Shown here: piece by piece, positions 39,767 to 57,492 of the stretch
Layout of the letters: the number at the start of each line of letters is the position of its first letter
How positions within the stretch are numbered: position 1 is the first letter of the stretch
DNA from: a virus
Lineage: Duplodnaviria > Caudoviricetes
Length of the DNA stretch: 64,000 bases
Reading direction: 5' to 3' (one strand)
IMG/VR virus record: IMGVR_UViG_3300017909_001085
Coordinates: 61,861 to 125,860 of that record
Position numbers and translations under genes: made by a program
Notes under the pieces: model-generated
Seen by the model: the letters and a program-made list of their open reading frames with translations, nothing else
The model's database searches: none
What the model was told of the DNA's origin: nothing

Positions 39767-40387
39767 TTATACGACTTCTTCGTATTTCTGTATGCGATTA
39801 TACATTATCGCCTTGTATTTGTCAACATCAAAATCAAGAAAAGGTCGGTATTTAATTAACTTTCGCCGTTCTTCTTTCCAAAAGAAATCATCAGCGAGTG
39901 TCTTATCCCAATAAGATAAGAAGTTGTTAATCGCATCAAATATCAACATAGTCTCAATTCTAACATCTTGTCTGCAGTACATCTGTAGTAGTAGAGGGTG
40001 TTGACCATCTTTAACTACAAAGCACTTATCAAACTTATTCAATTCTTCTTCTTCAAGTTCTGTGCATATCTCATCTAAGTCATCTGTGAAGTTCTTGGTC
40101 ATACTTTGCATACGACCTTTCCAAGTATTGTAAACTTGTAGTGCTTCTTCATAAATGAAAGCACCACCCCACCGATTACCATCTACATGATTAGCAATCA
40201 GAAACTTTGGTAGTTCATCTTCACTAAACTCATCAGCAAGTCTTTTGAAGTTGAACTGGTCAGACCTTTTATAAAAAGTTTCGTCTTTTGTCTTGACTGC
40301 ACCTCTGGTCTTTGTTATATCATATCTGTCTGTAGTAAAGTGTAACTTAAAAGCAAGGTACACGTTGAAAGCATCAAATTCATTCAT
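39767..40387 (-). CDS. gp59: Helicase loader
   Basis: YLA.KLHFT...YD, HP.LL, IET...D and KY.PFL motifs. Confidence 0.88.
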   Translation of the reverse strand: MNEFDAFNVYLAFKLHFTTDRYDITKTRGAVKTKDETFYKRSDQFNFKRLADEFSEDELPKFLIANHVDGNRWGGAFIYEEALQVYNTWKGRMQSMTKNFTDDLDEICTELEEEELNKFDKCFVVKDGQHPLLLQMYCRQDVRIETMLIFDAINNFLSYWDKTLADDFFWKEERRKLIKYRPFLDFDVDKYKAIMYNRIQKYEEVV

Positions 40388-40971
40388 CTGTAAGGTTTGC
40401 CGCATATCCATCCCACTAAACTATATCTCTTACCTTTTGTGACTGGTCGAACTCTATGATAAGTAAATGATGGAAACACAATTGCTTCTCCAGTCTTCAC
40501 TTGACATAATTCAGTTCTATTCTCTTCATGTGGTAGTCCTAATTCAAATTCAAACTCACCACCTTCATACTCATGATTAAGTAGTACCGAGAAACTAATC
40601 TTTCTAATCTTACCTTGTAGATACTTGTCAGCATCAGCATACGGCACACTTCTCTGGTCGGCGTGCCAATTATAATGTTGTTCAGGACCATATGTTGTAA
40701 ACTGTAAGTCTTCGATTGCATCATAATCAAAGTTCCATTTGTTATTAATATTCTCAAGATGTATCATTTCAAGTAAAGGTTTGTAAATGAATTCAGTATC
40801 AGGATTTCTTTTGAACCAAGATATAGAACTATTTCTATGTCCTTGTATCGCCGCTTCTGTACTATCAATTTTAGCGTCTTCTAAATTTATTTCACCCATT
40901 GAAATAATCTTATCAACTTCAGGTAAAGTAAAAATAGGTTTTGTGGTTGAGTAGCAATATTGTAAAATCAT
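40384..40971 (-). CDS. 2OG-Fe(II) oxygenase (prolyl-hydroxylase-like)
   Basis: WHAD...RKIS...YEGGE...FPSF..HRV.PV..G.RYSLV.W. Confidence 0.88.
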   Translation of the reverse strand: MILQYCYSTTKPIFTLPEVDKIISMGEINLEDAKIDSTEAAIQGHRNSSISWFKRNPDTEFIYKPLLEMIHLENINNKWNFDYDAIEDLQFTTYGPEQHYNWHADQRSVPYADADKYLQGKIRKISFSVLLNHEYEGGEFEFELGLPHEENRTELCQVKTGEAIVFPSFTYHRVRPVTKGKRYSLVGWICGKPYR

Positions 40972-41204
40972 ACTGGTAACTCCGCTGTTGTCTTTGGAAG
41001 ATAATGTAAGTCTTGTGCATTGACAGTAACTTTGTCTTTCAATGTCTTACTAATAAACTTACGAACATCTTCGGGTTCAAGTTCATGCTCATCACAGTAG
41101 AGCAAGATTGCATCCATGTGAGTAACACATTTAAGTTGTACAATGTCTTCAATGATTTTACTAAATCTTTTCGGTGTCATAGGTTCAGGATTCATCAATC
41201 CCAC
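40968..41204 (-). CDS. gp33: Late transcription co-activator
   Basis: FS..IE, DAI..YC, LK.K....A..L.YLP motifs. Confidence 0.85.
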   Translation of the reverse strand: MGLMNPEPMTPKRFSKIIEDIVQLKCVTHMDAILLYCDEHELEPEDVRKFISKTLKDKVTVNAQDLHYLPKTTAELPV

Positions 41205-41695
41205 CTGTAGAAAATATGGTCATCTATTTGTCCTATTCTAGTTTTCTCTTTGTTCCAATCTGGATTTACATAGTCAGCATGATAGTGTGTAGCACCTTCA
41301 ACCATACCAGCATATCTGTTAGTTAAAATTCTATTGACAAGTCTCAAAATTCTTTGATATGCTTCTGTGTCATGTATGATTTCTGGTTTGCCGTCACAGA
41401 ACCAAGAGAACTGACATTTGTGTTTTCTAGGTACATCTTTACCTTTTTGTTCTTTCCACCATGTAGAATATTGTGCTTGATATACGACTTCACAAATCGT
41501 ATCAGGAAATCTACTATCACGAACACGATTAATAACTACAAGTCCTACTGCTATTTGACCAGCGGTAGATTGTGACTTTGCTTCGTGATATATGTTGTTA
41601 GCAAGACATACTTTTGAATTAGTGCTTGGAAGTTTTACATCATCTGCTAATGCGCTAGATGCAAGTAATAAAAATGGTACAATATATTTAATCAT
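41195..41695 (-). CDS. SleB-like cell wall hydrolase (Hydrolase_2)
   Basis: CLA.NIYHEA, NRV....FP.TIC.VV, CQFSW and GATHYHA motifs; start re-called at ATG 41695 (signal peptide). Confidence 0.88.
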   Translation of the reverse strand: MIKYIVPFLLLASSALADDVKLPSTNSKVCLANNIYHEAKSQSTAGQIAVGLVVINRVRDSRFPDTICEVVYQAQYSTWWKEQKGKDVPRKHKCQFSWFCDGKPEIIHDTEAYQRILRLVNRILTNRYAGMVEGATHYHADYVNPDWNKEKTRIGQIDDHIFYRWD

Positions 41696-41701
41696 AATCA
41701 C

Positions 41702-41730
41702 ATTATAATAGATTACATTTGATTTGTCAA
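41702..41730 (-). promoter_or_regulatory. Consensus sigma70 promoter for the SleB-like gene (leaderless geometry)
   Basis: TTGACA-17-TATAAT, then 6 nt to ATG. Confidence 0.8.
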
Positions 41731-41739
41731 TTAATAAAA

Positions 41740-42098
41740 TGGTAAAAGTGTCACTTTTCTGTTGCAAGGTAAGTGACCAACCCCTCAGATTATGCCGCTA
41801 AGGCGTACTCTGAATGTGCAAAGTTATCGTTTGCATTTGTAGTGTTTGACCAATTACGCAGTCACCCGACAGTTCTACTCTTTCCTATCTACGTCAGTCG
41901 ATCCTATTTCGCCCCCATCATAATAAGTCTTGCATGTGCTATTGAGTAGTTATTTATGCAAATGTACTCTACACATCTTTTTCTGAATAATCTTATTATT
42001 TCGTAGTCATCCATTATTATCTCAAAACTTATTATGGTGGAGGCGGAGGGTATCGCACCCTCGTCCTGCCCGTCATTCAGATTGTATCAACAAACTGT
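41740..42098 (-). ncRNA. ssrA: Circularly permuted (two-piece, alphaproteobacterial-type) tmRNA gene
   Basis: The acceptor piece ending GAGGGTGCGATACCCTCCGCCTCCACCA (42035) precedes the coding piece starting GGGGGCGAAATAGGATCGAC (41916). G3:U pair present. Tag ANDNFAHSEYALAA* at 41834-41790. Outer ends are approximate. Confidence 0.93.
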
Positions 42099-42103
42099 AA
42101 TTT

Positions 42104-42134
42104 TATTTATACTACACTCAAGCAACTTTGTCAA
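42104..42134 (-). promoter_or_regulatory. Overlapping sigma70 and late promoter for the tmRNA
   Basis: TTGACA-17-TATAAA, where the -10 element is part of TATAAATA (42104-42111). Confidence 0.75.
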
Positions 42135-43182
42135 GTACATATGGGTCAATATCTAAATATTTGCCCCATTCAGTATAATAGTGTCTCATACCCACTTCAT
42201 CATGTATCGTACTGTTCTCATGTCGACCATGTAGAATATTTCTATTCTCTGTACCTTCACGCATCGTTACACCTTGACCAGCAACACCAATCAAGTCTTC
42301 ATGTAAGTTGCGACCAAAAGGACCCCAAATAGTATTGTGTGCTTTGATACGACTTGCTCTTTCTTCTTCAGTATCTTTTCTTAGACCATAACCTCTGAAC
42401 TCAATGAGAACTTTGTTAGGACCAAGAGGTGTTACTGTGTCTGAACGATACGCACTTCCTCTAAGATTAAAGTTAAACCCTGGAAAGAGGTCAACCATAT
42501 ACCACTGATTAGGCGGCAGGTTAGGAAAAGATAGTTCGCCTCTATCTTCAAATCCATCATACTCTTCATAGTTGACAGTAAAACTACTCACATTGACATG
42601 ACCGTTTGCAAAAGGAATATTTTTTCTTGCAAAGTACTCATCATTAAATCCAGACACTCTATTAAAGTAATGCATAAAGTCGTGATAGAATTCACTGTTG
42701 GTGTCGTGCCATAGTTTGTAGTTCGTATCAATCACTGCTTTATGATAGTGAAAGACTTCTAGTTCTTCTGTATCGATTGCGTCTGCGATACAATCAAATG
42801 CACCTGCAGTCCATTCTTCTACTGACTGTGTAGGATTAGGGTCAAGCGTTACCCACACCATACCCCCATGCTTGACTTCACAGTGTATCTCATTACCTTC
42901 ATAAGGACAAGACAAGCAACCAGAGACTTGCTGAATAGGATGGTCTCTAAATGCTCTTACACCATTATAGTCATTCACTGCAATTACATTCACACCTGCT
43001 ATTTGCGTAGTGCGAAACTCGCCAGTATCATACATCTCAGAGATGTGACACATTGGTACCCAGACTTTACTGAATATTAGTTCTTGTTCTTGTTTGTATA
43101 CTTCGTAGTTATTATATGCTCTACTACTGATTGCTTCTATTCGTGGTGCTGATGACCACTGCTTATGATTACGAGGTGGCAT
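42118..43182 (-). CDS. msmA: Methanesulfonate monooxygenase large subunit-like ring-hydroxylating oxygenase lacking the Rieske motif
   Basis: EVFHYHKAVIDTNYKLWHDTNSEFYHDFMHYFNR, HNTIWGPFGRNLHEDL and TIHDEVGMRHYY motifs; no CxH...CxxH. Confidence 0.75.
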   Translation of the reverse strand: MPPRNHKQWSSAPRIEAISSRAYNNYEVYKQEQELIFSKVWVPMCHISEMYDTGEFRTTQIAGVNVIAVNDYNGVRAFRDHPIQQVSGCLSCPYEGNEIHCEVKHGGMVWVTLDPNPTQSVEEWTAGAFDCIADAIDTEELEVFHYHKAVIDTNYKLWHDTNSEFYHDFMHYFNRVSGFNDEYFARKNIPFANGHVNVSSFTVNYEEYDGFEDRGELSFPNLPPNQWYMVDLFPGFNFNLRGSAYRSDTVTPLGPNKVLIEFRGYGLRKDTEEERASRIKAHNTIWGPFGRNLHEDLIGVAGQGVTMREGTENRNILHGRHENSTIHDEVGMRHYYTEWGKYLDIDPYVLDKVA

Positions 43183-43215: not shown

Positions 43216-43638
43216 CTAAAATAGAGTTTGCAGAAACCCTCCTTGTGGTCTCACTTGTTCAAATATTAGACTATTAACTTCTAATCCAGTACCGATAGAA
43301 ATAAAACAAGTTAGACCGTTTTGAGGAACAAATTCTAAAATTGTAACCGTACCTTTGTTCGGATTCCCGATTACTTCAACTGCAGTTTGTCTATCACTTA
43401 CCCATCTCATAAACCCAACTTCTTTATGTGAGTCCTGAAAATTCTGTTTAACTACATCGTATGGGTCTGTCGTACATGTTATTGGTTTACCCATCTCAAC
43501 AATTCTAGGAGTTTCTGCTGGTGCTTCTTTTTCTACTTTAGGTTCTTCTTTAGGTAAGTCTTTTGGTTCTGCACTAGCAAAACCTGCCAGAAAAGATACT
43601 GACCAAAGTAACATTATTGCGTATACGATATTTTTCAT
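43216..43638 (-). CDS. Hypothetical exported protein
   Basis: Signal peptide; KPI.C...N..GT.TILE...TC. Confidence 0.6.
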   Translation of the reverse strand: MKNIVYAIMLLWSVSFLAGFASAEPKDLPKEEPKVEKEAPAETPRIVEMGKPITCTTDPYDVVKQNFQDSHKEVGFMRWVSDRQTAVEVIGNPNKGTVTILEFVPQNGLTCFISIGTGLEVNSLIFEQVRPQGGFLQTLF

Positions 43639-43653: not shown

Positions 43654-44202
43654 TCACTTTATGAGCATGTTGAAAGGCATCGTAATTCTATACTCATTCT
43701 CATAATGAGCAGGCATATCATGCTCTAACCATCCAGGAAAGAAAACTACTTTACCTATTTCTGCTTCCTCGGTATAAGGTTGCCAATTAAAAACTTGAGG
43801 TCTAGGGTCATAAAAATTTGTTTGACCAATATTATCAAAGTAAACAATAGCACATAACATGTTGTCTCCACCATGATTATGTTTTGAGTGTACATTACCT
43901 TTTGGCACATAGTTAAAAAAACTATTTTCTATCTCTACACGCCGTTCTGTTATGATTGTTGCAACTCTTACAACATTATCACTAAGCAATTTGCATGAAG
44001 GTCCAATACTATCAACAGTTTCTAAACTAGTATTATATGTAGTAAAATACTGTCTGATTCCACTGCGGTTGCGACAATTTTTAGCAAACTCTACTAACTC
44101 TTCTTTGCAACTATCTGCAAGTGATGTTGGTAAGAAATATTTATATAAGTTTGTAGAAAAGGTTTGAATGTTGTCAATATCCATGAGCATCTCGCCATGC
44201 AT
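43654..44202 (-). CDS. Putative 2OG-Fe(II) oxygenase (TIGR02466-like)
   Basis: HNH, F.DPRP, FFPGWLEH and RIT..FN motifs. Confidence 0.8.
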   Translation of the reverse strand: MHGEMLMDIDNIQTFSTNLYKYFLPTSLADSCKEELVEFAKNCRNRSGIRQYFTTYNTSLETVDSIGPSCKLLSDNVVRVATIITERRVEIENSFFNYVPKGNVHSKHNHGGDNMLCAIVYFDNIGQTNFYDPRPQVFNWQPYTEEAEIGKVVFFPGWLEHDMPAHYENEYRITMPFNMLIK

Positions 44203-57337: not shown

Positions 57338-57415
57338 CTGCCCGTAGTTCAGTTGGATTAGAACAACGGTCTTCTAAACCGTAGGTCGCAGGTTCGAGTC
57401 CTGCCGGGCAGGCCA
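57338..57415 (+). tRNA. tRNA-Arg(UCU)
   Basis: CTGCCCG/CGGGCAG acceptor stem, ACGGT-cttctaa-ACCGT anticodon arm, GGTTCGAGTCC and encoded CCA. Confidence 0.95.
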
Positions 57416-57418
57416 ATT

Positions 57419-57492
57419 CATGCGATGGCAGAGTGGTTATGCAGTGGATTGCAAATCCATCTAGGCAGGTTCGATTCCTGTTCGCATGTCCA
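57419..57492 (+). tRNA. tRNA-Cys(GCA)
   Basis: CATGCGA/TCGCATG acceptor stem, GTGGA-ttgcaaa-TCCAT anticodon arm, U73 and encoded CCA. Confidence 0.93.

Follow-up and report, generated by a model that had tools for sequence, protein, structure and literature searches.

What use has a phage for an oxygenase alpha subunit that has lost its Rieske centre and is carried without any partner? The question is raised by the window studied here, the whole stretch of 64,000 nucleotides analysed, taken from a 125,860-bp IMG/VR virus record (about 70% complete) of which it forms the 3′ half. One of its genes resembles msmA. Through its Rieske motif, msmA serves as a marker for methanesulfonate degraders, and ocean surveys count viral msmA as a sulfur-cycle auxiliary gene. 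A sequence-only reading of the window had taken the missing cofactor for a sign of repurposing by the phage. The comparisons below suggest another answer: the open reading frame probably encodes one half of a methanesulfonate monooxygenase that is split by nature, namely the catalytic half with the mononuclear iron.

The catalytic domain and its iron site

The gene forms a clean, uninterrupted frame of 354 codons on the minus strand. The sole Pfam match of its product is PF00848 (Ring_hydroxyl_A) at residues 139-343, with 35.6 bits against a cut-off of 24.9; the Rieske domain PF00355 was not found in the 354-aa protein by Pfam. The intact frame without C-x-H...C-x-x-H ligands that had been read from the sequence is therefore real. 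PHROGs holds no family for the protein, and NCBIfam, which has no MsmA model, returns just weak N-terminal matches to other oxygenases. The features discussed in this and the next section are the following.

42118-43182, minus strand: MsmA-like oxygenase alpha subunit, putative catalytic half (354 aa, PF00848 only)
42670-42693, minus strand: bridging Glu and two His iron ligands, E164-F-Y-H167-D-F-M-H171 (from alignments)
42295-42327, minus strand: WGPFGRNLHED motif, residues 286-296 (invariant)
42763-43125, minus strand: Rieske-domain remnant, residues ~20-140, a beta-sandwich base minus the cluster-binding loops (from the AlphaFold2 model and PDB alignments)
42871-42945, minus strand: deletion scar, residues 80-104, in place of CPHRG...X26...CMFHAW and the next ~25 residues (from alignments)

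The S-E-F-Y-H motif of the MsmA family aligns with E-C-Y-H of the carnitine monooxygenase CntA (E205/H208), and WGPFGRNLHED pairs with HDDL in chain B of PDB 7yls, D296 being the probable carboxylate ligand of the mononuclear iron. E164, H167, H171 and D296 are invariant across 88 viral, 13 SAR116 and 13 canonical MsmA sequences. The catalytic domain is well preserved, as had been claimed, and the motifs quoted in support are present and invariant. As judged from its sequence, the protein has what marks the catalytic domain of a Rieske-oxygenase alpha subunit, namely a PF00848/SRPBCC fold, a 2-His-1-carboxylate site and a bridging carboxylate. Its AlphaFold2 model (pTM 0.76) matches such subunits over the whole length, and Foldseek aligns it with NagG, TPADO and CntA at a probability of 1.00 and a TM-score of ~0.65.

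A precise deletion shared with SAR116 chromosomes

Two groups of relatives emerged when prokaryotes were scanned with one genome for each species. Full-length MsmA proteins (~415-423 aa) of Hyphomicrobiaceae, Filomicrobium, Methylobacterium and others are 53-58% identical to the window protein. Short forms are 73-84% identical; most of them sit on long contigs from SAR116 genomes obtained from single cells or metagenomes, and the SAR116 chromosomal copies are 79-80% identical. By maximum likelihood, the short forms group without exception in one clade (SH-aLRT 100) that branches inside canonical MsmA. The gene is thus a true MsmA relative, as first proposed, rather than a member of a different oxygenase family.

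The Rieske motif CXH-X26-CXXH is the MsmA signature in the literature (PMC4433239), and it is deleted in the window protein. An alignment of the SAR116 short form with Filomicrobium MsmA gives 57% identity and, in BLAST, a single gap of 53 residues that spans the CPH-X26-CMFH loops. The window protein has the same gap as its SAR116 orthologues in multiple alignments, where all four of its Rieske ligand columns are empty or substituted. The boundaries of the scar are identical in phage and SAR116 copies and its flanks, RP(S/A)G and GL..L..EVKHGG, are conserved; the scar segment itself is variable, and the SAR116 short copies still hold the first Cys-Pro of the motif. Two cysteines within the scar, C90 and C93, occur in the window protein and its nearest relative (L091) alone and are absent from the other 86 viral copies. 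Residual Cys and His residues as an alternative cluster site, a point raised with the original reading, were ruled out, as no conserved substitute set exists among the viral copies.

The remainder of the former Rieske domain is still recognizable. In PDB sequence searches, CntA and other oxygenases are matched by the first ~80 residues, which correspond to the beginning of their Rieske domains. The base of the domain (residues 21-150) is modelled with a pLDDT of ~80-94, which suggests that the base has been kept and the cluster-binding part alone is gone.

Cellular homologues lacking this very segment, an outcome considered beforehand, were found in 15 of 192 Puniceispirillales species genomes, including the chromosome of Candidatus Puniceispirillum marinum IMCC1322, the host of phage HMO-2011. 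Since the same short form with the same boundaries is found in SAR116 chromosomes, the loss is not a phage-specific repurposing, contrary to what had been proposed from the window alone.

Two reciprocally degenerate MsmA paralogues in SAR116

In Ca. Puniceispirillum sp. AH-135-F23, the short gene lies within an msm cluster on a 606-kb contig. The cluster runs from a gene for an 815-aa protein through an msmB-like beta subunit, an msmC-like Rieske ferredoxin and a 274-aa protein to the short alpha. A divergent LysR regulator, a TauE sulfite exporter, a PanB-like hydroxymethyltransferase, formate-tetrahydrofolate ligase and FolD follow. The 815-aa protein is a second copy of MsmA. Its Rieske domain, with the same spacer of 26 residues, is near-identical to that of canonical MsmA. 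The catalytic motifs have been destroyed, and the last 400 residues form a ferredoxin reductase of the glutathione-reductase type (Pyr_redox_2/Reductase_C). The order fusion-msmB-msmC-DUF5996-like-short alpha-LysR-TauE-PanB-like-FTHFS-FolD is conserved in 13 SAR116 loci. The distribution of the two metal sites is as follows.

Canonical MsmA (n = 13): Rieske C-H-C-H present in 13/13; iron site E/H/H/D present in 13/13
SAR116 fusions (~800 aa, n = 13): Rieske C-H-C-H present in 13/13; iron site E/H/H/D absent in 13/13
Short forms (all): Rieske C-H-C-H absent; iron site E/H/H/D present

The WGPFGRNLHED segment is deleted in all 13 fusion proteins. A complete alpha-subunit fold is nevertheless predicted for the alpha-like half of the fusion, so that both halves would retain the whole alpha fold in the models. 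By their sequences, the short alpha and the fusion are reciprocally degenerate MsmA paralogues.

The two genes also occur together: 14 of the 15 species genomes with a short alpha have the fusion as well, and the exception (L023) is a 1.5-Mb partial assembly. A second apparent exception (L018), with no fusion within 8 kb, was dismissed once the fusion was located ~12 kb away in the same genome. IMCC1322, a single contig of 2,753,527 bp, has the split system under uninformative names. Its fusion (ADE40345.1/WP_013046972.1) is a 'FAD-dependent oxidoreductase' in RefSeq and its short alpha (ADE40352.1/WP_013046979.1) an 'SRPBCC family protein'. The IMCC1322 cluster (L087, 2300000-2319999) also encodes an msmEFGH-like transporter, and its msmC is separated from the short alpha by an inserted dmsABC-like molybdoenzyme operon; msmA is known to adjoin dmsABC in SAR116 (PMC8547437).

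A further constant of the SAR116 clusters is the 274-276-aa protein encoded directly upstream of the short alpha in every case (for example L014:6921-7745 and L087:14555-15385, both on the plus strand). It has no Pfam or NCBIfam match, is DUF5996-like according to the ESM Atlas and is absent from phages. By analogy with NdmE, discussed below, its role could lie in the structure or the assembly of the split enzyme.

A possible division of labour between the two paralogues

Within one subunit of a Rieske oxygenase, more than 40 Å separate the cluster from the iron. Electrons reach the iron from the cluster of the neighbouring subunit via a bridging carboxylate, the mutation of which (E205 in CntA) abolishes activity (PMC7948474). 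Because transfer runs from cluster to neighbour, a mixed oligomer of two paralogues can work. It is the conserved bridging Glu, and this residue solely, that points, for the short alpha, to the C3-symmetric alpha3 or alpha3beta3 assembly with electron transfer between subunits. We know of no role for it besides receiving electrons from a Rieske centre. As it is invariant in copies that have no cluster of their own, the short alpha would face a Rieske domain supplied in trans.

On balance, we lean towards a SAR116 methanesulfonate monooxygenase that is a reciprocally degenerate hetero-oligomer, of which abundant marine phages of at least three morphotypes took the catalytic module only. From the orthology, the shared deletion, the ligand pattern and the co-occurrence, we infer the following scheme. 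One MsmA paralogue would have been reduced to an electron-delivery module consisting of a Rieske domain, a dead scaffold and a fused reductase, and the other to a catalytic module. The short alpha and the dead paralogue would form a mixed ring with the Rieske centre provided in trans, and electrons would flow from NADH through the fused reductase and MsmC to the Rieske centre of the dead paralogue and on to the iron of the short alpha. Phages and the SAR116 lineage would have exchanged the short half only. The most likely partner of the phage protein is the electron-delivery half of the host: during infection, it would assemble with the host Rieske/reductase half, MsmB and MsmC, and would raise or maintain the amount of catalytic subunit while depending on these partners. 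The infected cell could thereby keep the conversion of methanesulfonate to sulfite and formaldehyde running. The return to the phage may consist of sulfur, reducing power and C1-folate units, formaldehyde being fed into the folate C1 pool; a pay-off in sulfite and C1 units is suggested by the genes that adjoin the short alpha in SAR116. Of the roles first imagined for the phage protein, the mixed oligomer with host MsmA survives as an idea. Its likely partner, to judge from the ligand pattern, is the dead, Rieske-bearing paralogue fused to the reductase rather than an ordinary MsmA.

A different electron route is conceivable, in which a small Rieske ferredoxin (MsmC or another) docks at the site of the deleted subdomain and the fusion acts as a reductase only. 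Every SAR116 cluster encodes a Rieske-type ferredoxin, and in the model precisely the subdomain that binds the cluster has been deleted, and the base that remains is compact. This route would also account for the wide carriage among phages if a usable ferredoxin were common among hosts. It leaves unexplained, however, why the fusion has an alpha-like scaffold and a canonical-like Rieske domain next to a decayed iron site, and the joint occurrence of short alpha and fusion in 14 of 15 genomes speaks against it as well. We regard it as fairly unlikely.

The substrate deserves similar scrutiny. The short-alpha family, in hosts and phages alike, might act on another small sulfonate or a methylated compound, in which case the name msmA would mislead. 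The strains proven to grow on methanesulfonate all have the CXH-X26-CXXH form (PMC4433239), any activity of the short form on methanesulfonate is a prediction, and the IMCC1322 cluster contains the dmsABC-like operon. Set against this are catalytic motifs identical to those of MsmA, the identity of the SAR116 orthologue to Filomicrobium MsmA (57% full-length, mostly in the catalytic part), and a gene context (msmEFGH-like transporter, TauE, C1-folate genes) that fits the conversion of methanesulfonate to sulfite and formaldehyde. Another substrate is accordingly judged decidedly unlikely, and methanesulfonate is retained in the split-enzyme scheme.

Carriage by phages

The window phage is T4-like, with a gp6 baseplate wedge and gp32. 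By core genes, its nearest cultured relatives are the OM43 phage Melnitz and pelagimyophages, at ~45% identity in gp6. When the 12 kb surrounding the gene were compared with isolate phages by megablast, only short gp32 and PhoH matches came up, and the phage therefore has no close cultured relative. The oxygenase gene is carried alone, as had been noted for the window: genes with PF00355, the beta-subunit domain PF00866 or Fer2 (PF00111) were not found anywhere in the 125,860-bp record, at its ~70% completeness. Nor were msmB, msmC, the fusion, the reductase, TauE or C1 genes found in 80 viral loci (860 kb).

Solitary carriage is widespread. At least 597 IMG/VR contigs carry the catalytic half only, which bears out the suggestion that phages are a source of Rieske-less msmA-like sequences and makes them a major one, and public data contain over 1,200 clusters (90% identity) of homologues of ~350 aa. 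The short half occurs in several phage types, including podovirus HMO-2011, the T4-like myophage of the window and two ~340-kb contigs whose phage-like gene content resembles that of jumbo phages. Redox genes adjoin the short alpha in the latter (L002:11481-12428, L003:8351-8785): NifU and a peroxiredoxin in one contig, and a plastocyanin/azurin-like copper protein in the other. Short-form contigs were also binned to five unrelated MAGs (Legionellales, Verrucomicrobiales, Rickettsiales, Endobugula and Hellea). As they have no msm neighbour and several of them share phage genes with the window, these five contigs are probably misbinned phage DNA. The disparity between a very common viral gene and a partner system in only 15 of 192 SAR116 species genomes counts against the split-enzyme reading, as does the nearness of the window phage's core genes to those of pelagimyophages and OM43 myophages.

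All 88 viral copies examined are intact. For two unsaturated pairs that include the window gene, dN/dS is 0.035 and 0.055, and the median is ~0.07; the phage copies are under strong purifying selection. T4-like neighbours, SAR116 orthologues and a dN/dS of ~0.03-0.07 together mark the window gene as an auxiliary metabolic gene. Metatranscriptome contigs at 95-98% identity span parts of the gene in four runs from three studies and, with DNA carry-over possible, give a hint of its expression.

These data bear on the repurposing originally proposed, which cast the phage protein as an iron-sparing filler, as a dominant-negative inhibitor of the host enzyme, or as an iron or ligand binder. The gene does travel without partners, and a subunit lacking the cluster saves two Fe and two S per chain. 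Neither an inhibitor nor a binder, however, needs invariant catalytic and bridging residues or selection of the strength given above, and both roles fit poorly with them. Moreover, the short form is chromosomal and syntenic in SAR116, where the partner has itself lost catalysis and the short alpha would thus be the only catalytic subunit. Phage-specific repurposing is very improbable on this evidence.

The surroundings of the gene have features of their own. Directly downstream is a two-piece (permuted) tmRNA gene of the alphaproteobacterial type (41699-42138, minus strand), the 5′ end of which overlaps the last codons of the oxygenase frame (stop at 42118-42120). ARAGORN places it at 41699-42129 with the tag ANDNFAHSEYALAA, and Rfam models RF01849 and RF04321 score 109.6 and 114.6 bits. 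Its type hints at an alphaproteobacterial host; BLAST against the 192 Puniceispirillales genomes returned conserved-core matches of 21-35 nt only and no host assignment. A cell-wall hydrolase of the SleB/Hydrolase_2 type with an N-terminal signal-like segment is encoded at 41195-41767 (minus strand). Hydrolases of the same type lie a few kb from the msmA-like gene in contigs that look unrelated (L002:14810-15238, L025:4711-5157, L027:12596-13042), which suggests that the two genes form a small mobile cassette common to phages. The oxygenase/tmRNA pair is flanked by two 2OG-Fe(II) oxygenase genes (phrog_61 and phrog_81, at 40384-40971 and 43654-44202, both on the minus strand), making this stretch an island of iron-dependent oxygenases. 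A secreted-looking protein of 140 aa with no assigned function is encoded directly upstream of the oxygenase gene (43216-43638). Elsewhere in the window, genes for tRNA-Arg(TCT) and tRNA-Cys(GCA) stand side by side at 57338-57492 (plus strand).

Exchange between SAR116 and phages

Within the tree, the SAR116 chromosomal copies form one clade (SH-aLRT 97). The window gene belongs to a large viral clade, apart from HMO-2011 in the free tree, where HMO-2011 and L025 are placed below the SAR116 clade. A single viral clade is not rejected by the AU test (p = 0.63), and one exchange between SAR116 and phages, in either direction, suffices. The fusion and short-alpha clades are not sisters, which counts against the split-enzyme reading, with negligible backbone support and long branches in the tree. 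One Puniceispirillales MAG (L043, Co_bin_53) has a canonical, unsplit MsmA of 420 aa that is sister to the fusion clade (SH-aLRT 93) and may show the Rieske-bearing paralogue in its ancestral condition.

As to direction, the gene exceeds the phage average in GC content by 2.5-3.4 points in four of the five phage loci compared, and in SAR116 its GC content matches that of the locus, a weak hint at transfer from host to phage. Mean identity to canonical MsmA (0.63 for viral and 0.62 for SAR116 copies) is uninformative on this point. That the cluster-less alpha was born in phages and later domesticated by SAR116, after which the host copy decayed, appears unlikely.

Implications

The existence of phage msmA and its missing Rieske motif have already been published for HMO-2011; the proposed split enzyme behind them is new in the searched literature. 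That literature gave no description of the SAR116 fusion or of the split design, nor of the Rieske-bearing SAR116 'MsmA' as catalytically dead and fused to a reductase. The complementarity of the two copies and the carriage of only the catalytic copy by phages are likewise not described in it.

If the proposal is correct, surveys by primer or motif that demand CXH-X26-CXXH would miss the catalytic subunit of SAR116 and its phages and pick up the catalytically dead paralogue instead, and the RefSeq names of the IMCC1322 pair would hide a complete pathway. Both alpha scaffolds having been kept, inter-subunit electron transfer would become directly testable. The phage gene would be a 'half-enzyme' auxiliary gene that wires phages to the electron-delivery half of the host. 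Because such a gene would function only with a specific host partner, it may also serve as a marker of host range.

Comparison with known systems

The closest viral counterpart is gp61 of HMO-2011 (YP_008320323.1, annotated 'methanesulfonate monooxygenase'), which is 71% identical to the window protein over 98% of its length and shares the deletion, the iron site and the solitary carriage. The window phage differs in being a T4-like myophage, whereas HMO-2011 is a podovirus. The msmA of HMO-2011 goes back to Kang et al. 2013, as cited in PMC4928673. Absence of the Rieske motif has been recorded for HMO-2011, for one of the two IMCC1322 'MsmA' genes and for GOS and virome reads (PMC4433239), and viral msmA is listed as an auxiliary gene (PMC4928673, PMC9356048, PMC9636769). 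These accounts present the viral gene as the 'MsmA' that starts methanesulfonate oxidation and leave the missing cluster unexplained (PMC4433239, PMC4928673, PMC9356048, PMC9636769).

The canonical MsmABCD of Methylosulfonomonas, Filomicrobium, Hyphomicrobium and others has catalytic motifs identical to those of the window protein. In contrast, the window protein is without CXH-X26-CXXH and the phages are without msmB, msmC and msmD. SAR116 departs from the canonical enzyme in another respect, since it replaces the FNR-type MsmD by a reductase of the glutathione-reductase type fused to the dead MsmA copy.

The nearest functional parallel is a split caffeine demethylase, the N7-demethylase NdmCDE of Pseudomonas putida CBB5, which combines the Rieske-less NdmC, the reductase NdmD with an extra Rieske cluster and the GST-like NdmE (PMC4408171). 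There, as in SAR116, the oxygenase has no Rieske centre and the centre sits on the reductase polypeptide (Rieske, Pyr_redox_2 and Reductase_C in the SAR116 fusion). The NdmC-type layout is met in the SAR116 hosts, while the phage has the oxygenase half only. No published precedent for such a split other than NdmCDE, and no NdmCDE-type split from any virus, was found in the searched literature; the SAR116 system would be the second independent natural separation of the cluster from the iron site. The short alpha is an analogue and not a member of that system, being of independent origin and descended from MsmA. Unlike in NdmCDE, the Rieske domain of SAR116 is attached to an alpha scaffold that is complete but dead, the reductase belongs to another class, and the cluster has kept a beta subunit and a separate Rieske ferredoxin, with a conserved DUF5996-like gene instead of a GST-like one. 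NdmCDE works, and a split between the cluster and the iron site can therefore work.
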